Part shown: one piece after another, positions 1 to 9,401 of the stretch
Layout: every line of letters starts with the position of its first letter
How positions within the stretch are numbered: position 1 is the first letter of the stretch
Source: Escherichia phage vB_EcoP_ShWW44
Length of the DNA: 64,000 nt
Sequence record: PQ900156.1
Direction: 5' to 3' (one strand)
The notes under the pieces: model-generated
What the model saw: only the letters and a program-made list of their open reading frames with translations
The model's database searches: none
Told to the model about the DNA's origin: nothing
Made by a program: the position numbers and the translations under genes

Positions 1-5
1 GCTGG

Positions 6-56
6 GGCTACACCCTTACACTCAACTCCCCCCCCCGGTATGTTGACGGTGTAGCC
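6..56. repeat. 9-bp inverted repeat (GGCTACACC / GGTGTAGCC) enclosing a C9 homopolymer tract (28-36) at the window/genome left edge
   Basis: Perfect reverse-complement 9-mers at 6-14 and 48-56 read directly; nine consecutive C at 28-36. Confidence 0.5.
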
Positions 57-83
57 ACTACCCTACCCCACCTTACACGTTAC

Positions 84-98
84 ACATGCTCCGCATGT
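84..98 (+). promoter_or_regulatory. N4 vRNAP-type hairpin promoter (stem ACATGC / loop TCC / stem GCATGT)
   Basis: Inverted repeat with 3-nt loop; core GCTCCGC is the reverse complement of the N4 early promoter core GCGGAGC as recalled; followed by TATGGA; sits upstream of first ORF. Confidence 0.6.
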
Positions 99-140
99 TA
101 TGGACATGTCGTCCTATCATCAACTATTGGAGCTATCATC

Positions 141-464
141 ATGACTACTCAAGCTACTGTACGTATGACCGCAGGAACTTTACTTGGTACTGTTAACTCA
201 GCTGCTACTACTGTTGCAGATACCTTTGGTACAGCAACTAAAGCAGTAGGTATGCTTAATTCATATGTTAGTACTATGGCAGAGAAACAAGCCATTCGTA
301 CTAAATTAGAAATGCATACATTCGTAAACAAATTAGCTGAAGAAACAGCTATGAATGAGACTCTGCGTAAGAAAAGTATTGAGGAATTCTGCAAGGATTC
401 AGAGAACGCTCGTATCTATAACGCAGAATATTCCAAAGTAATTGACATCCTGACTAAAGACTAA
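141..464 (+). CDS. hypothetical early protein (107 aa)
   Basis: ORF with GGAG Shine-Dalgarno upstream of ATG; downstream of hairpin promoter; followed by terminator. Confidence 0.55.
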   Translation: MTTQATVRMTAGTLLGTVNSAATTVADTFGTATKAVGMLNSYVSTMAEKQAIRTKLEMHTFVNKLAEETAMNETLRKKSIEEFCKDSENARIYNAEYSKVIDILTKD

Positions 465-472
465 GTCACCTA

Positions 473-499
473 GGAGACTCTTCGGAGTCTCCTGTTTTG
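473..499 (+). terminator. rho-independent terminator (GGAGACTC-TTCG-GAGTCTCC + TGTTTTG)
   Basis: Perfect 8-bp stem, tetraloop, T-rich tail immediately after stop of 141..464. Confidence 0.7.
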
Positions 500-554
500 A
501 ACATTAGATAGATAATCAAAAGTAGATAACTATCTACTTTAGGAATAGAAAATC

Positions 555-884
555 ATGACTAAATTCCGTTGTATCAAAGGCAATTGTGACATTCCTGTTG
601 GAACAATTATTGAAGGAGAACTTAAGGGTGAATATATAATTCTCACTAAGGATTCTACTATTCTAATGGGAGAAAAGCCTATCTTTGAGAAAGGAGAACC
701 AGTTAAGTTAACTGGTTACGTATGGCAATGGGAAGCCTGTGAAGATAAGGAAGAACTACTGGAACGTTATGAGAAAGCTGTTCGTGCCCATGAAATGCTT
801 GGTGCTCAAGACCCGGAAGATTGGTCTGGAATTGAGGAAGAGTATGAATCTGCTAAGGCAGAATTGCTTAAACGTTTGTCTTAA
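555..884 (+). CDS. hypothetical early protein (109 aa, acidic C-terminus)
   Basis: ORF with AGGAA RBS; early-region context. Confidence 0.55.
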   Translation: MTKFRCIKGNCDIPVGTIIEGELKGEYIILTKDSTILMGEKPIFEKGEPVKLTGYVWQWEACEDKEELLERYEKAVRAHEMLGAQDPEDWSGIEEEYESAKAELLKRLS

Positions 885-890
885 AAACCG

Positions 891-903
891 GAAGCTCCGC
901 TTC
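891..903 (+). promoter_or_regulatory. N4 vRNAP-type hairpin promoter (GAAGC-TCC-GCTTC)
   Basis: 5-bp stem / 3-nt loop; reverse complement GAAGCGGAGCTTC matches the N4 early promoter hairpin as recalled; followed by TATTGGATAC. Confidence 0.7.
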
Positions 904-937
904 TATTGGATACATTTCAACCAATTAAGGAGCATCC

Positions 938-1153
938 ATGAACGTAAAATCTATCCGTATAATTGAGAATTGCTTTAGTGATAAACCAGTAGACCTCAGC
1001 AACTCAAGAAGGTCTACAGATAAAGAATATAAAGAGTTTCTATCCTTACTCGATGAATATCGTATGCAAGGGCATGTTGAATTACATGCCTTTCTGCATA
1101 ACTCAGGCTACTTCATGGACAAACTGGAAGCTAAAACAGGTTGTCCATTCTGA
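938..1153 (+). CDS. hypothetical early protein (71 aa)
   Basis: ORF with AAGGAG RBS just downstream of hairpin promoter. Confidence 0.5.
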   Translation: MNVKSIRIIENCFSDKPVDLSNSRRSTDKEYKEFLSLLDEYRMQGHVELHAFLHNSGYFMDKLEAKTGCPF

Positions 1154-1160
1154 AAACAAA

Positions 1161-1173
1161 GACGCTCCGCGTC
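1161..1173 (+). promoter_or_regulatory. N4 vRNAP-type hairpin promoter (GACGC-TCC-GCGTC)
   Basis: 5-bp stem / TCC loop, followed by TTATGGATGA similar to the other copies. Confidence 0.65.
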
Positions 1174-1281
1174 TTATGGATGATGTAAATGCATCCACTA
1201 ATCATTGAACTTTTATCTTTTTGTTTGGGTGTTCTCACCGACGAGTTCACCCGTAAATCACATAAATCTGGAGAGTACAAA

Positions 1282-1662
1282 ATGTCTATTCAAAAATTCA
1301 CTTTCGGTCAATCTAACAATGCTGCTACCACTGCTAAAGCTGACAAACCAAAAGCTCAGTTCTGGTTGAACATTGGTTATGTAGCTAATGAAGGCTCTGA
1401 TGATGAGAAATTCATCTCATTGCCTACTGGTATTCCACTGGATACTCAGGAACCGCTGCCTACTAATAGCAGCAATGCTGACTTCCGTGCTATGCGTTGT
1501 GCACAGAATGACTTGCTGGAACAGTTAATCGAATATGCTCAGAACCTGGAACCAGGTGAAGAAGGTATCATTAACCTGCAAGTTCAACTTCGTCGTGTGA
1601 AAGCAGAGGCTGCTGACATCCCAGCAGACGAGAATAAATATGCTCGTAAACTGACTTTCTAA
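1282..1662 (+). CDS. hypothetical early protein (126 aa); start moved to internal ATG with GGAGAG RBS
   Basis: Track ORF 1189..1662 starts inside promoter-proximal sequence without RBS; ATG at 1282 has strong SD. Confidence 0.5.
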
Positions 1663-1672
1663 TCAACTACTA

Positions 1673-1700
1673 GACTCCCTTCGGGGAGTCTTTTATTTTT
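1673..1700 (+). terminator. rho-independent terminator (GACTCCC-TTCG-GGGAGTC + T-run)
   Basis: Stem-loop plus TTTTATTTTT directly after stop. Confidence 0.7.
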
Positions 1701-1805
1701 AACTAGACGATAAGCTATTTCTACTTTTTGAGTCTCTTTAGACGAAGGGTACTGAAACAGTAACCAGATAGATATAGATTTATATTAGATGAAGGAGTAA
1801 CCATT

Positions 1806-2102
1806 ATGCGTACAATATGTAACCGTTATAACTCACAGAAGTTGATTGTTACGTTACAACCGTGGGGCAGCAAGATGTCACTAAATGCTCGTTGGCAAGT
1901 ATCTGTAAAAGATGAAAATGGTCAGTGTTATGACCACTTCTTTGCAGCTAAACCTACTCGTAAACAAATTAGTAAACTTCACAAAGTACGTAAGCATTAC
2001 TTACTTAGTAAATGCTACGAATGTGGCAAAAGGATAGAACTGGGTAAAGAATTTACCTTAGATGACTTAAACTATGCACACGCTGACTGCCTAAAAGGAT
2101 AA
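1806..2102 (+). CDS. small Cys/His-containing (zinc-binding-like) protein (98 aa)
   Basis: ORF with GAAGGAG RBS; CYECGK ... HADC motif. Confidence 0.5.
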   Translation: MRTICNRYNSQKLIVTLQPWGSKMSLNARWQVSVKDENGQCYDHFFAAKPTRKQISKLHKVRKHYLLSKCYECGKRIELGKEFTLDDLNYAHADCLKG

Positions 2103-2106
2103 GACT

Positions 2107-2325
2107 ATGTTGGACTTCATTGCGTTTGTAATACTCTGCTATGTGCTATATCGCCTACGTGGTTACATCCTCAATGGAGCCAAGTGGATAATTACTAAGC
2201 TGGTACTTATCTGTAAGTTACCAGTTGTATTAGTTAAGTGTTTGTTTGCTTCCATCATAGCTAAAGAGGTGCGTAAACAACTATGGGCTAAGGAAGCAGA
2301 AGACTATGTTAAGAGGAACCAGTGA
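2107..2325 (+). CDS. small hydrophobic membrane protein (72 aa)
   Basis: ORF; hydrophobic N-terminal half. Confidence 0.45.
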   Translation: MLDFIAFVILCYVLYRLRGYILNGAKWIITKLVLICKLPVVLVKCLFASIIAKEVRKQLWAKEAEDYVKRNQ

Positions 2326-2471
2326 TGAATTATTCAGAATTGTGGCTTAAGTTTTATGAAGATTGGCTTAGTGCTGTATCTGGTAGACGCACCGAAGGTG
2401 ATATGAACCGGGCAAAGGAATTTGCAGATAATTGTATAAAGTCACTGAAGGAACCAGATGATATTCACTAA
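2325..2471 (+). CDS. small ORF (48 aa), ATGA stop/start overlap with upstream gene
   Basis: Below the track length cutoff; read manually; coupling-type overlap. Confidence 0.3.
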   Translation: MNYSELWLKFYEDWLSAVSGRRTEGDMNRAKEFADNCIKSLKEPDDIH

Positions 2472-2634
2472 CATAGAAGATGCCATTGAAGAGTGTATCT
2501 TTCGTAGGACCACTGGTGTACAGAAAAGACACTACGGTGTTGTACAACAAGGCCATCAAATGGTTGTAAGAATTGTACGTAACAGTAAACCTTCACGTAT
2601 TATGTGGAGTACTAAATCATGCGTAAGTCATTAA
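2458..2634 (+). CDS. small ORF (58 aa)
   Basis: Manual read; AAGGA RBS upstream of ATG; fills otherwise ORF-free gap. Confidence 0.3.
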   Translation: MIFTNIEDAIEECIFRRTTGVQKRHYGVVQQGHQMVVRIVRNSKPSRIMWSTKSCVSH

Positions 2635-2750
2635 TCATGGGAACCAGAGAAGACGTACAAAAGATGAAAGAACGTCTGGCTGCAAAGAAACAGTCATCTG
2701 AACCAGTACGTAAGATTGTTACCTTCAATCATCCAATATTAGGAAACTAA
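2619..2750 (+). CDS. small ORF (43 aa)
   Basis: Manual read; fills gap before 2753 gene. Confidence 0.25.
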   Translation: MRKSLIMGTREDVQKMKERLAAKKQSSEPVRKIVTFNHPILGN

Positions 2751-2752
2751 TC

Positions 2753-2965
2753 ATGTATTTCGTAATCTTTGTAGCACTAATGTATCTGAACGTTTGGCTC
2801 ACTAATGTAGCAGGTAATATTACTAAAACTTTGTCTACTAATAATGATGCCAGAGGTTTTGCAATATTTGGTTATGTTACTGCATTAACCAAGGGATTGA
2901 GCATAGGCTATGGCTTATGGTTCATATACTATTGTGTAGTCAATTTCCCATATTCATTTATATGA
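2753..2965 (+). CDS. small membrane protein (70 aa)
   Basis: ORF with AGGAA RBS; two hydrophobic segments. Confidence 0.5.
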   Translation: MYFVIFVALMYLNVWLTNVAGNITKTLSTNNDARGFAIFGYVTALTKGLSIGYGLWFIYYCVVNFPYSFI

Positions 2966-3025
2966 ACTGGCCTATTTCAATAGCCATGTTTGTACTGTTA
3001 ACCTACAGTGCATTAGTAGAACTGG

Positions 3026-3057
3026 GAGTCCTCCATTAGGAGGGCTTCTATTTTTTA
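3026..3057 (+). terminator. rho-independent terminator
   Basis: CCTCC-ATTA-GGAGG stem-loop followed by TATTTTTTATT. Confidence 0.55.
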
Positions 3058-3099
3058 TTCTTGAATAGTTAGATATGTATTTAAACAGGAGAAATTATC

Positions 3100-3414
3100 T
3101 TGAATGAAATTGTTTGTATACTTCCTCATTCAGCTAAGATAGCTGACCGGAATATACGTATCCACTTACCATTTCCACTAAGCAATCCATTCACTCGTAA
3201 TGAAAGAACCACAGTAGAGGATGTAGAGGTAGCTTATGAAGCTTACCTTCGTAATCGTCTTATTAGTGGTGACAAACTAATTACAGCAGAGATGGAAAGG
3301 ATTGCATCCTTTGTAACAGATAGTACAGGTAAGCCTGTTGGCCTAATTGGTACTGAATCTGATGTTAACGTTATTCGTAAAATACTAATGGAGGCACTCG
3401 GTGAACAATCTTAG
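3100..3414 (+). CDS. hypothetical protein (104 aa), TTG start
   Basis: ORF; AGGAG 8 nt upstream of TTG. Confidence 0.45.
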   Translation: MNEIVCILPHSAKIADRNIRIHLPFPLSNPFTRNERTTVEDVEVAYEAYLRNRLISGDKLITAEMERIASFVTDSTGKPVGLIGTESDVNVIRKILMEALGEQS

Positions 3415-3646
3415 TGATGTCATCATAGATAAAACAATATTAGTGAATCCCAAAGGGTATGCCTGGTTCATGCTAAAGCATACCCGTAAGGTATATGTTA
3501 GAAAAGTATATATACGTAACTTTGGTAAGTTATCTTACAGAGAAGTACGTATTAATAATGAGATGTACTTTCTAGATGAGTCAGTGATTATCAAATCAAC
3601 CGAAGACAGAAAAGCCCCTTACTTTAACTATTACGGATTCAAGTAA
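3401..3646 (+). CDS. hypothetical protein (81 aa)
   Basis: ORF overlapping upstream gene by 14 nt. Confidence 0.4.
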   Translation: MNNLSDVIIDKTILVNPKGYAWFMLKHTRKVYVRKVYIRNFGKLSYREVRINNEMYFLDESVIIKSTEDRKAPYFNYYGFK

Positions 3647-3647
3647 A

Positions 3648-3869
3648 ATGCTGTTCAGCACTAATTATGGTATTTGCCCGATTTGCAATAAAGGAAGAGG
3701 AGTTGCTAATCATAAGAAGTGTAGTCGTATTCTACAGAAACAACGGAACCAGAAAGAATGGGCTAAGGTATTGGAAAACCAACACAAAGATGAGTTCAAG
3801 AAGACAGCTGTTAAGGCATCTACTCAGCTCATTCGTCGTACTAACTTCATAGAAGGCTACCAGAAATGA
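3648..3869 (+). CDS. small Cys-containing basic protein (73 aa)
   Basis: ORF; CPICNKG ... KKCSR motif. Confidence 0.45.
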   Translation: MLFSTNYGICPICNKGRGVANHKKCSRILQKQRNQKEWAKVLENQHKDEFKKTAVKASTQLIRRTNFIEGYQK

Positions 3870-4222
3870 AACTAATCATAGCCGGTGGAAGAGACTTCGT
3901 AGATACCAATCGTATGATTGAGGAACTACAGAAGTTAGTAAATTCAGGGAATATACCTGAATGCCCAGAATTAGTATGTGGTATGGCTCGCGGAGCAGAT
4001 ATATTAGCATTCCGTCTATGGAAATCTGCAAATATGCAGATACATGTATTCCCTGCTGAATGGGATACCTATGGCAAGTCTGCTGGATTCCGTAGGAATA
4101 AAGAAATGGGTGAATTTGCAGATGCTGCTGTATGTTTCTGGGATGGTAATTCCAAAGGAACCAAGCACATGATTGATATCATGAATAAGCTAAATAAACC
4201 TGTATACGTCGTGAGGTATTAG
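3866..4222 (+). CDS. SLOG/DUF2493-like Rossmann-fold nucleotide-binding protein (118 aa)
   Basis: Motifs IIAGGRDF, GMARGADILA, EWDTYGKSAGFRRN, WDGNSKGT resemble the SLOG (YspA/DprA/LOG-like) family as recalled; ATGA overlap with upstream ORF. Confidence 0.55.
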   Translation: MKLIIAGGRDFVDTNRMIEELQKLVNSGNIPECPELVCGMARGADILAFRLWKSANMQIHVFPAEWDTYGKSAGFRRNKEMGEFADAAVCFWDGNSKGTKHMIDIMNKLNKPVYVVRY

Positions 4223-4480
4223 ATGATTATTACATACCCTACAGGCAGACTGTGGAATTATATGAAGCATACTATTGCAATGCCTCATTGGGTTAAGTAT
4301 ATAGCGTTATTACTACGGACATATAAGAGTGCCAACACCTCACTGATAGGATTCTCAAGAAAGCCTAAGCTAACAGAAAACAATATTTGGGTATCCTCTG
4401 GGAGACAAGAAGAGATTGGTTTCTGTGATTATGAGTATGTCGATGACATAACTTATGGGACATTGGAGAAGGTGAAGTGA
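4223..4480 (+). CDS. hypothetical protein (85 aa)
   Basis: ORF in operon-like array. Confidence 0.45.
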   Translation: MIITYPTGRLWNYMKHTIAMPHWVKYIALLLRTYKSANTSLIGFSRKPKLTENNIWVSSGRQEEIGFCDYEYVDDITYGTLEKVK

Positions 4481-4791
4481 AAACTATTTTAGTAGTTCAT
4501 GATTCTACATTTACTGATGTAGATAAAATGATGCGTAATATTGATTATGTATCTCAAACAAGCCAAGCATTCAATGAAGAGTTTACTCTGTACTGCAATG
4601 CTGAATCTCCTCTGGTTCCTATTCTTAAGGAGTCAGGTCTACCATTCTCTACAGAGAACTTCCCGGAAGAACCAGACTATGTAATCTCATTTATCTATGA
4701 CTTACATGATGGTTCTGAAACCAGTGAATTAGCTATGAACCAGTGGCGTAGTAAACGTCCTGTGTTCGCATTTCAGGTACTTAAACCATGA
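4477..4791 (+). CDS. hypothetical protein (104 aa), GTG start overlapping upstream stop
   Basis: ORF. Confidence 0.45.
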   Translation: MKTILVVHDSTFTDVDKMMRNIDYVSQTSQAFNEEFTLYCNAESPLVPILKESGLPFSTENFPEEPDYVISFIYDLHDGSETSELAMNQWRSKRPVFAFQVLKP

Positions 4792-5168
4792 AGATTATGT
4801 CATTAGGTGACGACACCAATGCTTTACTTGGTGTATCTGCACGTCCAATCATCATTGTTAATAAACATCACGGTAAATCTGGTGAATATATTGGGCGTGG
4901 CTCACCATTAGGCAATCCATTCGTTATTGGTAAAGACGGTTCAAGAGAACAGGTTATAGCCAAGTATCGAGTATGGCTTAATGAACAAATCATGAGAAAG
5001 AATCCAGTTGTACTGGATGAACTTAATCGTCTTGGTAATAAAGCTATTGACGAAAAAGGATTAGCCTTACAGTGCTTCTGTTACCCAAAACCATGTCATG
5101 GTGAGGTTATTAAAGAGAAGCTAGTAAAAGCTATGTATAACTACTTTGTGGAGAATCCTAATGGATAA
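4788..5168 (+). CDS. DUF4326-like protein (126 aa)
   Basis: Motifs IVNKHH, YIGRGSPLGNPF, YRVWL, CFCYPKPCHG match the DUF4326 pattern as recalled; ATGA overlap. Confidence 0.55.
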   Translation: MKIMSLGDDTNALLGVSARPIIIVNKHHGKSGEYIGRGSPLGNPFVIGKDGSREQVIAKYRVWLNEQIMRKNPVVLDELNRLGNKAIDEKGLALQCFCYPKPCHGEVIKEKLVKAMYNYFVENPNG

Positions 5169-5346
5169 ACAATGCAAATGTGGTAAAGGCCATGTATCCC
5201 AATGGGATGGTAAATGTGGTCATTGCCGAACCAAGAAGGAACAGAAAGACCACGAACAAGCTCTTGATTATATAGAAGTAATCCGTGAATACTACAGTAT
5301 GACCAGACGCGATGCTTATATTTATAACAGAGAAGGGGGTAAGTGA
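5161..5346 (+). CDS. small zinc-ribbon-like protein (61 aa)
   Basis: CKCGKG ... CGHC motif; start moved to ATG with GGAG SD. Confidence 0.45.
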   Translation: MDKQCKCGKGHVSQWDGKCGHCRTKKEQKDHEQALDYIEVIREYYSMTRRDAYIYNREGGK

Positions 5347-5693
5347 AAGAAATCTTAGTATTCACTACCAATACACTTGGGCAGCATACTAATGCTGCTG
5401 CCAAATTAGCTTATAAGAAGCACGGTGCTCGTTGGGGTATGGCCTATGGTCATTATGGTAATAGCTTTGCTATTCCAGTAAAGGATGGCAATGGTAACCG
5501 AATTAAAGAAGGTGCTATCTATGGCTTCATTGAAGGCTTTATTGCATATGCATCTTCTAATCCACAGTGGGATTTCAAAGTCATGAGTAATGATTATCTG
5601 GATCCATACCAATTCATTAATGTCACAGGCAACGTGCTGTTACCGGAAGCATGGCGTAAACACTTAGGTGATGCTTACAACTACTGGAGTTAA
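5343..5693 (+). CDS. hypothetical protein (116 aa)
   Basis: ORF, GTG start overlapping upstream stop; Gly-rich motifs of unknown family. Confidence 0.45.
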   Translation: MKEILVFTTNTLGQHTNAAAKLAYKKHGARWGMAYGHYGNSFAIPVKDGNGNRIKEGAIYGFIEGFIAYASSNPQWDFKVMSNDYLDPYQFINVTGNVLLPEAWRKHLGDAYNYWS

Positions 5694-5695
5694 TA

Positions 5696-5956
5696 ATGAC
5701 TTATGAAGAATTATGGTCTGCTCAAGTCAGAGCCAGAGCACTTACACGACATGACATCTATTGTGCATTACAGAACGAATCAAAGAGTCGTACTAAGCTG
5801 GGTCACGTATCTGGTTTCATCAAAATACCTATGACTAGTCTAGTATGGCCTTATAAGAAGAAATGTAATGAGTTTAATGGTAATGGTTTGCATGTACGTA
5901 TTTATTACCTTGGCGATGAAAATAGTATTCGTATTAACTTTTGGACTAAGCGTTAG
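5696..5956 (+). CDS. hypothetical protein (86 aa)
   Basis: ORF. Confidence 0.45.
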   Translation: MTYEELWSAQVRARALTRHDIYCALQNESKSRTKLGHVSGFIKIPMTSLVWPYKKKCNEFNGNGLHVRIYYLGDENSIRINFWTKR

Positions 5957-5961
5957 GTAAT

Positions 5962-5976
5962 AGCTGCTCCGCAGCT
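5962..5976 (+). promoter_or_regulatory. N4 vRNAP-type hairpin promoter (AGCTGC-TCC-GCAGCT) upstream of the RNAP II genes
   Basis: 6-bp stem / TCC loop with the same GCTCCGC core; immediately upstream of the RNAP1 leader. Confidence 0.6.
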
Positions 5977-5978
5977 TT

Positions 5979-6004
5979 TGGTTATTAATCACATTTAGGA
6001 GAAT
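5979..6004 (+). promoter_or_regulatory. conserved leader motif TGGTTATTAATCAC..TTAGGAGAAT (copy 1, upstream of RNAP1)
   Basis: Near-identical to 31718-31744 upstream of the SSB-like gene. Confidence 0.4.
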
Positions 6005-6009
6005 ATGCG

Positions 6010-6828
6010 ATGTACTCATCTATTGAACATCAGAAGCGACTTGAAATCCTTTTCAACAAAAATCAATTACTACCTCGCATGAGGAAGGAATTCGAGGACT
6101 CCGAAGAAATTGACTTTAAGGCATTCGCTGCCTATTCGGAAATTGATTATAAGCTGCTCATTGATGCAATGGTGCAGATTGCCCTACATAAACGTGCTGA
6201 CATTCAGACTATGATTGGCTCTCTCATGAGTCACTCAGATGATGCTCAGTACATCGCTGACTGTCTGTATAAGATGGCAGAGAATGACTGCTTCAACTAT
6301 GACCCTACCATCGACAAGTTCGGTGTTATTTATGAGATTAGTGAAGATGTACAGATGGAACTGGAAGCATTCCAGTATCCATTGCCTATCGTAAGTGCTC
6401 CTAAGCCTGTTCTGTGTAACCGTGATACTGGTTACTACGAAAGCAGAGGTAGCATCATCCTCAAGAAGAACCATCATGAGATGGATGTCTGTCTTGATCA
6501 CATCAACCGTATGAACAATCAACGTCTCTGTATTAACTGGGACGTTGCTAACTATGTAAAAGACTCTCGTCCTAACATGGATAAACCCAAAGAAGGTGAA
6601 ACCCGTCAGGACTATGAGAAACGTGTTAAAGCCTTTGAGAAGTACAGTCGTACAGCTAAGGAAGTAATGGAGCTAGTGACCAAAGAAGGTAATAACTTCT
6701 CACTGGCTCACAAGTATGACAAACGTGGGCGTACCTATGCCTGTGGCTACCACATCAACTATCAGGGAACCAGTTACAACAAAGCTGTGCTGGAGTTCGC
6801 TGATAAGGAGCTAGTAAATGAAGACTAA
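6010..6828 (+). CDS. RNA polymerase II small subunit-like (N4 RNAP1-like), 272 aa
   Basis: Position directly upstream of the T7-like RNAP catalytic subunit, as in N4; no independent motif confirmed. Confidence 0.55.
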   Translation: MYSSIEHQKRLEILFNKNQLLPRMRKEFEDSEEIDFKAFAAYSEIDYKLLIDAMVQIALHKRADIQTMIGSLMSHSDDAQYIADCLYKMAENDCFNYDPTIDKFGVIYEISEDVQMELEAFQYPLPIVSAPKPVLCNRDTGYYESRGSIILKKNHHEMDVCLDHINRMNNQRLCINWDVANYVKDSRPNMDKPKEGETRQDYEKRVKAFEKYSRTAKEVMELVTKEGNNFSLAHKYDKRGRTYACGYHINYQGTSYNKAVLEFADKELVNED

Positions 6829-7036
6829 CATTGGCTCCTATGAACTATGGGTTAATGAAGAGTGTGTCTACTCAGGTACATATGTGAAGTGCTTATACTT
6901 TGAGAAGCTTTACAAGCTTCAAAACCCTAAGAGTAAAACCATTATTTATAAACTATCTGCCGACGTAGTAACTGGCTAATCCATCCAATAAGCAGGCTCT
7001 CCATAGTGGAGAGCCAAGAAGCAAAAGGAACATAAA

Positions 7037-8254
7037 ATGCAACTGTTAACCGCTCGTGAATACCTGAAAGTAGATATCGCTAATAACTATGGCTTAGATA
7101 AGAAGACATGGGATGAACGTATTGCCTGGTTCGATGAGAACGAAGCTAACCTGCTTAATCTGGTAGATGAAGCAGAGGATTCTGCTCTATTCTTTGCAGG
7201 CATAAATGCATGGAAAGATATGAAAGCTGGTAAGCCTATTGGTTATGCCGTAGCTCTGGATGCTACATCGTCAGGCTTGCAATTGCTGGCTTGTCTGACT
7301 GGTGACCGTTCTGCTGCTGAACTGTGTAACGTAGTTAACTACATGGGCGAGAATGGTAAGCCATTACGTCGTGATGCTTATACAGTCATCTACCATAAGA
7401 TGCTGGATATCCTTGGTGAAGCATCACGTATTAAACGTAGTGACACTAAGCAGGCAGTTATGACTGCATTCTACGGCTCAGAAGCCAAGCCTAAAGAAGT
7501 ATTCGGTGAAGGTATTCGTCTCAAGACTTTTGAGAATGTAATGGAAACTGTTGCTAGTGGTCCTTGGGCACTTAACAAGTTCTTACTGCAATGTGGTAAC
7601 CCGGACGCCAACCGTTACATATGGATACTGCCTGACAACTTCCACGCTGTCATTAAGGTCATGGTTCCAGAGGTACAGACTGTTAACTTCTTAGGTAAAC
7701 CGTTCGACATCACTCGTATGGTTCAGGGTACTGAAGAGAAGACTCGTATGCTCTCTGCTAATATCACTCACTCTATTGATGGGATGGTGGTACGTGAGAT
7801 GCTACGTCGTTGTAACTTCGACCGTGACTTAGTAGAAGCTGTGCGAGAACTCTGTGATGAAGGTCCATCAGAATATGGGGAGATTGCAGGTAATCTGGAG
7901 AAGGTACAAGAGCTATGGAGCCATTATGAGAAATCTGGCTTCTTATCCGTATCAATCCTGGATTATCTTGACCCATGCACTATTGCTTATGTAGACCGTC
8001 AGGTAGTAGCAGATATGATTGACACTATGCCTAAGAAGCCATTCCCTGTAATGACTGTACATGACTGCTTCCGTTGCCATCCTAACTACGGTAATGACTT
8101 GCGTCGTCAGTATAATCAGATTCTGTCTGATATTGCTAAGAGTGACTTGCTTGGATTCATTCTGTCTCAGGTACTGGGACAAGAGTTCTCTGCTGGTAAG
8201 CTGGATGACAGCCTCTGGCAGGACATTCTGGAGACTGATTATGCATTAAGTTAG
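7037..8254 (+). CDS. T7-like single-subunit RNA polymerase catalytic subunit (N4 RNAP2-like), 405 aa
   Basis: Motif A-like LDATSSGLQ, motif B-like RSDTKQAVMTAFYGS, motif C-like VHDCF. Confidence 0.85.
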   Translation: MQLLTAREYLKVDIANNYGLDKKTWDERIAWFDENEANLLNLVDEAEDSALFFAGINAWKDMKAGKPIGYAVALDATSSGLQLLACLTGDRSAAELCNVVNYMGENGKPLRRDAYTVIYHKMLDILGEASRIKRSDTKQAVMTAFYGSEAKPKEVFGEGIRLKTFENVMETVASGPWALNKFLLQCGNPDANRYIWILPDNFHAVIKVMVPEVQTVNFLGKPFDITRMVQGTEEKTRMLSANITHSIDGMVVREMLRRCNFDRDLVEAVRELCDEGPSEYGEIAGNLEKVQELWSHYEKSGFLSVSILDYLDPCTIAYVDRQVVADMIDTMPKKPFPVMTVHDCFRCHPNYGNDLRRQYNQILSDIAKSDLLGFILSQVLGQEFSAGKLDDSLWQDILETDYALS

Positions 8255-8261
8255 TAAACTA

Positions 8262-8294
8262 GCCTCATTCCTTCGGGAGTGGGGCTTATTTTTT
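8262..8294 (+). terminator. rho-independent terminator
   Basis: CCTCATTCC-TTCG-GGAGTGGGG hairpin (G-U pairs) + CTTATTTTTTC. Confidence 0.6.
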
Positions 8295-8494
8295 CTTTGG
8301 AGGTAGCAACTATGCTAATCACTTTTGAAGTAATCTTTCAGTTAATACTGATAGTTTTATCTGTACTGGTTCTGGCTACGATAGTCCGTGCCCACAAGTC
8401 TAAGTTTGCTTACTGCTACTATGGGGCATACTCACTAGGCTGCTTTGTAATGGCAGGATGGATAGCTTTTGCTATCTACTGTGTAAACAACTAA
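8279..8494 (+). CDS. small membrane protein (71 aa)
   Basis: Two hydrophobic helices; overlaps terminator tail, so uncertain. Confidence 0.35.
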   Translation: MGLIFSLEVATMLITFEVIFQLILIVLSVLVLATIVRAHKSKFAYCYYGAYSLGCFVMAGWIAFAIYCVNN

Positions 8495-8520
8495 CCCTCT
8501 TAACGGAGGGTTTATTTTTT
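8493..8520 (+). terminator. rho-independent terminator (AACCCTC-loop-GAGGGTT + T-run)
   Basis: Read directly. Confidence 0.6.
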
Positions 8521-8567
8521 ACATGTCATGTATACTAATCCTGCTATTTACTTATGAGGAAATTGAT

Positions 8568-9401
8568 ATGCCAACTTTGAAAGTAGGTTTTAACAAAACC
8601 ACTAATGTTGCAACTGTACTGGATGCAGGTGGTTCTATTCCAGGTGGTTCCGTAGAAGTAGGTACTTTTGTACACCCGGATGCCACTTACCCTGATAGCT
8701 TAGTTATCTATCATGGAGTTCGTGATCTGTTGTATAAACGCTCTGCTAAAAACCCTGCTGAAGAAGGCTTCTGGCCTAATAACATCGTGGATATGCAGTC
8801 TATCTCTATTGATATGAAAGCTACTCCACGACTGACTGTCGCTACCAAACTGTCTCGTGTAGTCTCCGCTATCGAAGGTGAAGACATTAACTGGCATGTT
8901 GATGTAGCAGGTGGTAAAGCACCATTTACTTATAAATGGCAATTCAAAGTTGATACCGTTGGTGCAGCATTCGCTGATATTAGTTCCAGTACTAACCCAT
9001 CTGCTGCTACTGCAACGCTGACTCTTAAAGACATAACAGCTGCTTCTGCTGGTACTTATAAAGTGATTGTTACTGATGCTAATGGAACCACTGTAGAAGA
9101 TGAGTCACTGCTGGCTGTAGGCTATTACGAAGCAAGCTCCCTGGTAGCTACTCCTGCTTCACTGGCTCTGTCTGTTGCTGACGATCTTGCTGCTGGTAAA
9201 ACCGTAACCATTGCTGCTATGCCTGTTGGTTCTTCTGCTGGTACTTTGTCTATCAAGACTGCTCCAGATTCTGCTCGTGCTACGGCTACCATTGCTGGTA
9301 ACGTACTGACAGTTAAACCAGTGGCTGCTGGTGAAGCTACTTCTGTAGTAGTTACCAATGGTACGGTCGATGTAACTATCCCTGTTACTGTTGCAGAATA
9401 A
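8568..9401 (+). CDS. Ig-like domain protein (possible N4 gp17-like capsid decoration protein), 277 aa
   Basis: Ig-like segments (FTYKWQFK ... AGTYKVIVTDANGTT; BIG2-like C-terminal part); position after RNAP2 as recalled for N4 gp17; start at ATG with GAGGA SD. Confidence 0.5.
   Translation: MPTLKVGFNKTTNVATVLDAGGSIPGGSVEVGTFVHPDATYPDSLVIYHGVRDLLYKRSAKNPAEEGFWPNNIVDMQSISIDMKATPRLTVATKLSRVVSAIEGEDINWHVDVAGGKAPFTYKWQFKVDTVGAAFADISSSTNPSAATATLTLKDITAASAGTYKVIVTDANGTTVEDESLLAVGYYEASSLVATPASLALSVADDLAAGKTVTIAAMPVGSSAGTLSIKTAPDSARATATIAGNVLTVKPVAAGEATSVVVTNGTVDVTIPVTVAE

Follow-up and report, generated by a model that had tools for sequence, protein, structure and literature searches.

An early gene block of an N4-like Escherichia phage encodes SLOG, DUF4326 and degenerate macrodomain proteins and is a candidate ADP-ribose-centred toolkit against host immunity

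Gene content of the block

We have analysed a stretch of 64,000 nucleotides from Escherichia phage vB_EcoP_ShWW44 (PQ900156.1), hereafter the window, focusing on a block of small genes at 3100-5956. An earlier note, made from the letters of the window, had described positions 3866-5693 as an early-region cluster of SLOG-like, DUF4326-like and zinc-ribbon proteins and as a candidate anti-defence module. The 4-kb stretch around the block shares 93% identity with Escherichia phage St11Ph5 (Schitoviridae, Gamaleyavirus) and is conserved in 77 N4-like phage records; the coordinates of the region coincide with the left end of the St11Ph5 genome. The source phage is a Gamaleyavirus (N4-like), and region 3100-5956 is a gene block orthologous to N4 gp9-gp14 with an accessory SLOG gene of the YAcAr family in a variable slot (Table 1). 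The block is flanked by gp2 (1189-1662) and by the genes of two RNA polymerase II (RNAPII) subunits (6010-6828 and 7037-8254), which is the arrangement of an N4-type early region.

The list of open reading frames (ORFs) confirmed the four ORFs named in the earlier note (3866-4222, 4788-5168, 5161-5346 and 5343-5693) and placed two further ones between them, at 4223-4480 and 4477-4791. The note had also described tight coupling of these genes through ATGA overlaps. Read from the sequence, ATGA start/stop overlaps are found at 3866 and 4788, while those at 4477 and 5343 are GTGA, i.e., GTG starts. The DUF4326 and zinc-ribbon genes overlap by 8 nt (5161-5168), and the genes meeting at 4222/4223 abut directly (TAG followed by ATG). 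These overlaps and the abutment couple the block genes tightly, with GTG as the start codon at two of the overlaps.

Every ORF in the block matched a PHROG family, and the pairwise ratio of nonsynonymous to synonymous substitution rates (dN/dS) among Gamaleyaviruses was 0.03-0.29 for the genes tested. Together with the conservation of the region in 77 records, this supported that the block ORFs are real, selected genes. We have scanned viral contigs with the macro-like family of the last named ORF (gp14), which gave 36 N4-like loci, N4 itself included, and have scored domain occurrence across these loci with domain-trimmed hidden Markov model (HMM) seeds.

Table 1. Features of the block and its borders (positions in the window)
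Feature	Position	Strand	Evidence and occurrence
Terminator-like hairpin with T-run, immediately upstream of the block	3023..3050	+	12-bp stem, 6 GC pairs, TTTTTTATTC tail
Putative degenerate DUF4326 paralogue, N4 gp9 orthologue	3100..3414	+	Pfam below cut-off; phrog_464; alignment
Small ORF, variable slot	3401..3646	+	phrog_10124; absent from the 36 N4-like loci scanned, present in St11Ph5
Small Cys/His-containing ORF, gp9.1, variable slot	3648..3869	+	phrog_6887; 7/36 loci
YAcAr-family SLOG, 118 aa, presence/absence accessory	3866..4222	+	Pfam PF10686; phrog_289
Small ORF, gp9.2	4223..4480	+	phrog_1972; 11/36 loci; 68% aa identity to St11Ph5
N4 gp11 orthologue, predicted SLOG-like Rossmannoid fold, without canonical Gly-rich motifs	4477..4791	+	
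DUF4326 protein, N4 gp12 orthologue, 126 aa, motifs intact	4788..5168	+	Pfam PF14216
Zinc-ribbon-like peptide (CxC...CxxC), N4 gp13 orthologue, 61 aa from ATG	5161..5346	+	phrog_13804
Predicted degenerate TARG1/DarG/AdfM-type macrodomain, N4 gp14 family, 116 aa	5343..5693	+	NCBIfam A1S_2505
Small ORF, last gene before the RNAPII genes	5696..5956	+	phrog_14487; 8/36 loci
Hairpin AGCTGC-TCC-GCAGCT, template-strand loop GGA, upstream of the RNAPII genes	5962..5976	+	

The accessory SLOG protein

The SLOG assignment of the earlier note held in the profile searches that it had proposed as a check. The protein matched Pfam PF10686 (YAcAr) with an E value of 9.7e-9 and 35.4 bits (cut-off 28.2), over profile positions 1-66 of 66, and phrog_289 with an E value of 4.9e-31. 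All YAcAr motifs are in place (G7-G8-R9, G39-M-A-R-G43-A-D45, R77-N78 and W92-D-G94-N-S96-K-G98-T99) and coincide with the invariant or near-invariant columns of the SLOG family alignments, of which the protein retains the family-invariant G7, G43, W66, A73, R77 and N78. Against the Protein Data Bank (PDB), the SLOG family profile gave a weak DprA match (E 0.02).

The gene was found in 7 of the 36 loci and in about 25 Escherichia/Shigella records, against 77 sharing the region. Among Gamaleyaviruses it is present (L005) or absent (L003, L004 and L006) between the same conserved neighbours, and it evolves faster than its neighbours, with a dN/dS of 0.15-0.29.

An exhaustive search with the SLOG family returned 15,737 cluster representatives at E <= 1e-3, and relatives occurred in 1,029 of 50,697 phage records. 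Among 52 relatives longer than about 150 aa, additional domains were DUF4326 (12), DUF488-N3a (5), DUF488 (2), NADAR (4) and Macro (3), an independent reproduction of the domain associations that Iyer et al. described (PMC7824862, PMC9503650). One relative lies in Vibrio phage ICP1 (MW794190.1, 89431-89775), where a stretch annotated as 'helB accessory helicase' contains a YAcAr SLOG-like segment with 40% identity to the block SLOG; it is an instance of the SLOG-helicase fusions known from the literature.

DUF4326 proteins and the zinc-ribbon peptide

The DUF4326 assignment held as well, since gp12 matched Pfam PF14216 with an E value of 9.2e-23 and 81.1 bits (cut-off 25). In the alignment, its motifs GRGSPLGNPF (G36-R-G-S) and C96-x-C98-x4-C103-H104-G are intact, and GRGS and CxCxPxxCHG, the putative active site, are invariant across gp12-type homologues. 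Phage HK2 encodes a DUF4326 protein with 100% identity to it, and in a word-indexed homologue search with DUF4326 only near-identical sequences were among the best 120 matches listed.

Upstream, gp9 matched the same Pfam family below the cut-off (E 0.012, 16.7 bits) and phrog_464, the PHROG of gp12, at an E value of 1.9e-17. Both GRGS and CxCxPxxCHG are missing from this paralogue and its orthologues, and we regard gp9 as a second, putatively degenerate DUF4326. DUF4326-containing proteins and SLOG relatives also gave weak to clear matches to DUF488-N3a/DUF488.

The zinc-ribbon-like gp13 matched phrog_13804 (E 3.7e-29) and no zinc-ribbon model in Pfam or NCBIfam. Its Cys pattern C5-x-C7 ... 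C19-x-x-C22 is conserved, and homologues were found in 11 of the 36 loci. In locus L029 (3978-4433), a zinc ribbon with this motif lies N-terminal to DUF4326 within one fused 151-aa protein; Pfam confirmed the DUF4326 part.

gp14 is a predicted divergent macrodomain

The ORF at 5343-5693 had been called an uncharacterised Gly-rich protein. The gene is real, and its product has a predicted macrodomain fold, as described below. The protein matched no Pfam family and was placed by NCBIfam in NF049995 ('A1S_2505 family phage non-structural protein'), the sole NCBIfam family named. An alignment of 35 homologues gave the consensus FGSNxAGxHGAGAA ... SFAIPTKD ... TRIGCGLAG and was used to build a confident AlphaFold2 model (pLDDT 93.3). 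Foldseek comparison of this model with the PDB placed the designed hydrolase OSH55 at the top, followed by TARG1 and DarG, with probabilities of 0.92-0.97, though at E values of only about 0.07.

Profile comparison with hhalign pointed in the same direction. The canonical gp14 family aligned to human TARG1 (sequence checked against PDB entry 2lgr) with a probability of 82% and an E value of 1.1e-5, the probability being 70% with the full family; IPTK pairs with ITKK (catalytic K84) and TRIGCGLAG with PRIGCGLDR. By sequence, human TARG1 has a further match in 2dx6/TTHA0132 (E 7.7e-6). The match to the PhiKZ AdfM is weak (E 0.013) and full-length, in register over the catalytic Asn, GAG, PTKD and the GC-G loop, and that to the T4 AdfM (Tk.4; loop PRIGAGIG) is a local RIGxG match only (E 0.065). 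In HMMER searches, the gp14-family profile found no macrodomain in the PDB, and the three main proteins gave nothing meaningful against PDB sequences. Since searches at the HMMER level do not see the relationship, the family is a divergent one and not a member of Pfam Macro; by its modelled fold, it is a TARG1/DarG/AdfM-type macrodomain. A match of the family to the Pfam 5-FTHF cyclo-ligase (E 0.0036) was rejected as spurious. In two public records of related phages, the macro-like gene is labelled 'ADP-ribosylglycohydrolase'.

The gp14 of this phage has lost parts of the consensus. A deletion of 8 residues removes RIGCGLAG, and H15-T-N-A-A-A replaces H-G-A-G-A-A. The same motif losses are found in Gamaleyavirus relatives, and both loops are kept in N4 and in more distant homologues. 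The intermediate relative P0008 keeps the first motif without the loop, which suggests that the RIGCGLAG loop was lost first. K47 (in I-P-V-K) and N10 are kept; in statistically weak, in-register alignments they correspond to TARG1 K84/DarG K80 and to PhiKZ AdfM N23, respectively. The gene is under purifying selection (dN/dS 0.05-0.22 among Gamaleyaviruses), and because this selection persists, gp14 is probably a non-catalytic derivative and not a pseudogene.

gp11 has a predicted SLOG-like fold

By fold comparison only, gp11 (4477-4791) is predicted to have a SLOG-like Rossmannoid fold. GT-B glycosyltransferase domains scored nearly as well as SLOG, and sequence-level comparison with SLOG families by hhalign gave E values of 0.013, 0.0056 and 0.37, none of which is significant. 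Among the 36 loci, gp11 homologues were found only in 14 (L003-L016).

Conservation, gene order and fusions in N4-like phages

In the N4 annotation, gp9 is the DUF4326 paralogue, gp11 the homologue of 4477-4791, gp12 the DUF4326 protein, gp13 the zinc ribbon and gp14 the macro-like protein, followed by gp15/gp16. The five corresponding genes of the window are orthologous to those of N4 and collinear with them, directly upstream of gp15/gp16, with 47-92% aa identity (46-89% by tblastn), and the same gene order was found in 14 related loci. N4 differs in having neither a SLOG gene nor any of the small ORFs 3401-3646, 3648-3869 and 4223-4480, and its gp14 keeps the RIGCGLAG loop intact.

The divergence of the individual genes from N4 is given in Table 2. 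Strong constraint on the core of the block is seen in gp11 and gp12, whose dN lies below that of the RNAPII subunits, and gp14 is the most diverged block gene. In N4-like coliphages, gp9, gp11 and gp12 belong to the core gene set, and accessory behaviour is confined to the SLOG gene.

Table 2. Divergence of block genes and RNAPII subunits between this phage and N4
Gene	aa identity	dN	dS
gp12 (DUF4326)	92% (89% by tblastn)	0.067	0.82
gp11 (SLOG-like)	80%	0.128	1.06
gp9 (DUF4326 paralogue)	72-75%	0.221	saturated
gp13 (zinc ribbon)	66%	0.265	1.16
RNAPII subunits (gp15, gp16)	65-68%	0.24-0.28	2.2-2.8
gp14 (macro-like)	47%	0.449	1.87

Across all 36 loci, the macro-like gene lies upstream of the RNAPII genes, either directly or with one small ORF between. 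DUF4326 occurs in 22 loci, and 6 loci have the macro gene with neither DUF4326 nor SLOG. A second, DprA-like SLOG of about 180 aa (hhalign to YAcAr, E 1.5e-4) was found in 12 loci, and the order SLOG or SLOG-like gene, DUF4326, macro gene and RNAPII genes recurs in distant N4-like loci. In L032, DUF4326 and the DprA-like SLOG are fused in a protein of 287 aa, whose DUF4326 part was confirmed by Pfam. Such Rosetta-stone fusions, together with the zinc ribbon-DUF4326 protein of L029, tie the parts of the block together.

The DprA-like SLOG carries the pattern GIGSRxTP...RSGxAxGAD...GGTGQAIRIA and lies in the early region of L017, L018, L021-L024, L026, L027, L031, L032, L036 and L038. Its Pfam matches are below threshold only, and it never shares a locus with a gp11 homologue.

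Expression signals

Four GC-rich hairpins, each with a stem of 5-7 bp and the loop TCC (read as GGA on the template strand), were found on the + strand at 84-96, 891-903, 1159-1175 and 5962-5976, and hairpins of this kind are confined to the left end of the window. We take them to resemble the early promoters of the N4 virion RNA polymerase (vRNAP), in which case they would define early transcription units, one of them just upstream of the RNAPII genes. Over positions 1-9000, sigma-70-like promoter matches are strongly depleted (4 vs. 27 +/- 5.3 in shuffles) and terminator-like hairpins are enriched (19 vs. 5 +/- 2.2 in shuffles). As to the early-region placement claimed in the earlier note, we infer early expression of the block from the synteny with the N4 left end and from these promoter-like and terminator-like signals only.

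A candidate ADP-ribose-centred toolkit

The recognisable proteins of the block are a SLOG, the SLOG-like gp11, an intact and a degenerate DUF4326 and a macrodomain of TARG1/DarG/AdfM type, all of them from families centred on nucleotides of the NAD+/ADP-ribose type. Based on this set, on the fusions, on the recurring gene order and purifying selection, and on the position between vRNAP-type promoter-like hairpins, we tentatively propose that the block is an early ADP-ribose-centred processing toolkit against ADP-ribose-based host immunity, a reading that we consider a serious possibility just short of probable. The toolkit would be made in the first minutes of infection and would process, as enzymes, ADP-ribose-linked products of host immunity. 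These products could be phage DNA carrying DarT-type ADP-ribosylation, soluble signals or toxic metabolites derived from ADP-ribose (TIR/SIR2-type), or both. According to family precedents and fusions, the SLOG protein may bind an adenine-nucleotide/ADP-ribose moiety or cleave an N-glycosidic bond, gp12 with its Cys motif may remove a ribose-linked terminal phosphate or related group, and the ancestral gp14 macrodomain would have removed ADP-ribose from a macromolecule in the manner of AdfM. The zinc ribbon would be an accessory module of DUF4326. In this phage, SLOG and gp12 would be the intact enzymes, and gp9, gp11 and the loop-less macrodomain non-catalytic partners; for gp9 and the macrodomain, this is probable because their motifs have been lost while those of SLOG and gp12 are intact.

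The earlier note had proposed that the cluster would sequester or modify host immune nucleotide signals. Its nucleotide theme has been strengthened, in the form of ADP-ribose, by the macrodomain, the fold of gp11, the second DUF4326 and the fusions. Signal sequestering becomes one option among several, since the candidate substrates include ADP-ribosylated DNA, soluble signals and something related to Avs3; for the ancestral block, removal of ADP-ribose from DNA is no less likely than sequestering of immune nucleotide signals.

That an anti-defence role is plausible is supported by the reported activities of relatives of two of the families. AdfM proteins are stand-alone DarG2-type macrodomains of phages that remove DarT2-made ADP-ribose from DNA and protect T4 (Tk.4) and PhiKZ (gp104) from DarTG2 (10.1101/2025.11.20.689424; PMC13309987). 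Compared with them, the gp14 family has marginal similarity (the hhalign E values of 0.013 and 0.065 given above), and the gp14 of this phage is without GAG and without the whole RIGCGLAG loop, so AdfM-like catalysis by it is unlikely judging from its sequence. ORF83, a SLOG/LOG-like 'DprA/Smf' phage protein, inhibits type 3 Avs (Avs3) by a mechanism that is unknown, and relatives of it carry a fused DUF4326 at the C-terminus (Gao et al. 2022, as analysed in the preprint 10.1101/2025.06.06.658234). We have compared ORF83 by description only. It resembles the block SLOG in being a small stand-alone SLOG-type phage protein with a DprA-like annotation from a family fused to DUF4326, and its R-N and Thr positions reported to contact AMP correspond, by motif spacing, to R77-N78 and T99; its proposed acidic residue D114 corresponds to H101.

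AdfN, a stand-alone phage NADAR that protects against DarTG1 (PMC11825919), sets a precedent for stand-alone ADP-ribose erasers as early phage counter-defence, and NADAR recurs as a fusion partner of the SLOG family. Viral SLOG, Macro, NADAR and DUF4326 domains have been predicted by Iyer, Burroughs and Aravind to jointly process ADP-ribose derivatives of host immunity (PMC7824862, PMC9503650), so the anti-defence hypothesis is not new but already published as a computational prediction. The block shares the domain families, the early-region deployment and the fusion partners of these predicted assemblies, and differs from them in that its domains are split into separate, translationally coupled genes with several degenerate paralogues. 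A Pfam scan of the block ORFs found no NADAR or Nudix domain, and no NADAR is annotated in positions 1-57,000 of the 72,444 of St11Ph5. New here are the recognition of gp14 as a macrodomain that has degenerated in this lineage, a SLOG-like fold for gp11, gp9 as a degenerate DUF4326 paralogue, two fusions found in N4-like phages, and the division of the block genes into core and accessory ones.

Alternative explanations

Several results weigh against the toolkit proposal. Both ADP-ribose-contacting glycine loops are missing from the macrodomain of this phage, so that the AdfM-like activity, which has the best precedent, is probably absent from it, and none of the 35 gp14-family members has a Pfam Macro match. 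Where LOG-type proteins have their catalytic Glu, members of the SLOG family vary (H101 here, D or S in ORF83 relatives), which makes hydrolysis by SLOG uncertain. The assignment of DUF4326 to the rhodanese-phosphatase clade is derived from the literature (Iyer et al., PMC9503650). PADLOC gave no match for any part of the block, and no functional study of N4 gp9-gp14 was found in the literature searched, the block proteins being known from their sequences. Finally, the dN of gp11 and gp12 lies below that of the RNAPII subunits, with that of gp9 about equal, and this fits an essential role in the life cycle too.

Such a role is the content of the alternative that we take most seriously, although it is itself unlikely: the block would serve a core function of N4-like phages, such as nucleotide/NAD+ metabolism, replication-linked DNA-end or modification chemistry, or host takeover, acting on phage or housekeeping substrates. 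It would account for the homologues of gp9, gp11, gp12, gp13 and gp14 in N4 and throughout the coliphage relatives, and for the fact that gp12 and gp11 are more similar to N4 than the RNAPII subunits are (92% and 80% vs. 65-68%) at substantial synonymous divergence. DUF4326-containing PHROG families are labelled DNA repair or NrdA-like, DUF4326 is fused to replication and restriction-modification components (Iyer et al., PMC7824862), and the Poa1p-type macro clade, with ADP-ribose-1''-phosphate phosphatase activity, is among the structural neighbours of gp14. However, small-molecule enzymes can be highly conserved even in conflict roles, the closest characterised relatives (AdfM, AdfN and ORF83) are non-essential anti-defence factors, and the 6 loci with a macro gene and neither DUF4326 nor SLOG indicate that the partners are dispensable in some lineages. 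The SLOG protein could act alone as an inhibitor of type 3 Avs like ORF83, its gene having been inserted next to DUF4326 and the macro gene into a permissive early slot. We judge this quite unlikely. The presence/absence polymorphism between conserved neighbours, the faster evolution of the gene (dN/dS 0.15-0.29), the DprA/Smf-type annotation common to both proteins, and the invariant R77-N78 and the T99 at the spacing reported for ORF83 relatives (10.1101/2025.06.06.658234) are in its favour, but the likeness to ORF83 is one of annotation, fusion partners and motif spacing, and the frequent covalent fusion of the SLOG family to DUF4326, NADAR and Macro argues for joint action.

Decidedly unlikely, in our view, is that gp9-gp14 form a single multi-protein machine and not a loose set of erasers. 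DUF4326 and SLOG would then be its intact enzymes, with gp9, gp11 and the macrodomain without its loops serving as their regulators or scaffolds; in a variant, this macrodomain would bind a DarT-like toxin or ADP-ribosylated DNA, or act as a decoy for it, with no catalysis. If true, it would mean a new pseudoenzyme-based counter-defence, or a DNA handling that N4-like phages depend on. The block might also be no functional module, with unrelated small early genes packed together and an ADP-ribose theme that is coincidental or vestigial. Overlapping start and stop codons are generic in phages, gp9, gp11 and the gp14 of this lineage are without the catalytic or binding motifs of their families, and four block ORFs have no recognisable family. 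Against this stand the independent fusions (zinc ribbon-DUF4326, DUF4326-SLOG and SLOG with DUF4326, NADAR or Macro), the gene order conserved across distant N4-like phages and the purifying selection on degenerate members; we consider this reading very unlikely. We give the least credence, and very little of it, to a phage that makes and then degrades its own ADP-ribose-derived signal, with SLOG as generator and macro and DUF4326 as erasers (the 'toggle' of Iyer et al. 2021). It was proposed for jumbo-phage sets of YAcAr SLOG, Macro and NADAR (PMC7824862), and the same domain families are found here, but neither NAD+-cleaving nor cyclase activity is known for YAcAr, and the macro 'eraser' is degenerate in this phage. 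No ADP-ribosyltransferase, TIR or SIR2 gene is annotated in positions 1-57,000 of the 72,444 of the close relative St11Ph5; on this annotation only, a phage-encoded ADP-ribosyltransferase was rejected.

In itself, this analysis refines the annotation behind an already published hypothesis. If the toolkit proposal is true, N4 gp9-gp14, a conserved but unstudied set of early genes in the Schitoviridae (phages of this family are used in therapy research), would gain a function and DUF4326 a first biochemical role, and it would become clear how the activities of SLOG, DUF4326 and macrodomain work together when each is encoded by its own gene. The phages offer a natural series of controls, with an intact macro protein (N4), a loop-less one (Gamaleyaviruses), and isolates with and without SLOG, and DarTG2, Thoeris-type signalling and Avs3 are candidate defences for dissecting the parts of the block.

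Annotation and neighbouring genes

Public annotations of the block proteins are inconsistent and for the most part misleading. The SLOG protein appears as 'GTP-binding domain' or 'DNA processing protein DprA', DUF4326 as 'ribonucleotide reductase NrdA-like' and gp11 as 'antirepressor'. We have rejected these labels, together with 'endonuclease', as transfers from fusions or from superfamily-level similarity.

The small ORFs 3648-3869, 4223-4480, 5161-5346 and 5696-5956 have 68-87% protein identity to St11Ph5, compared with 98-99% for the flanking genes, and this mosaicism suggests recombinational exchange of small early ORFs. Downstream of the RNAPII genes (8523-9401 onward, by synteny with St11Ph5) lie a gene for a Hoc-like head-decoration protein and others with the annotation superinfection exclusion/immunity.

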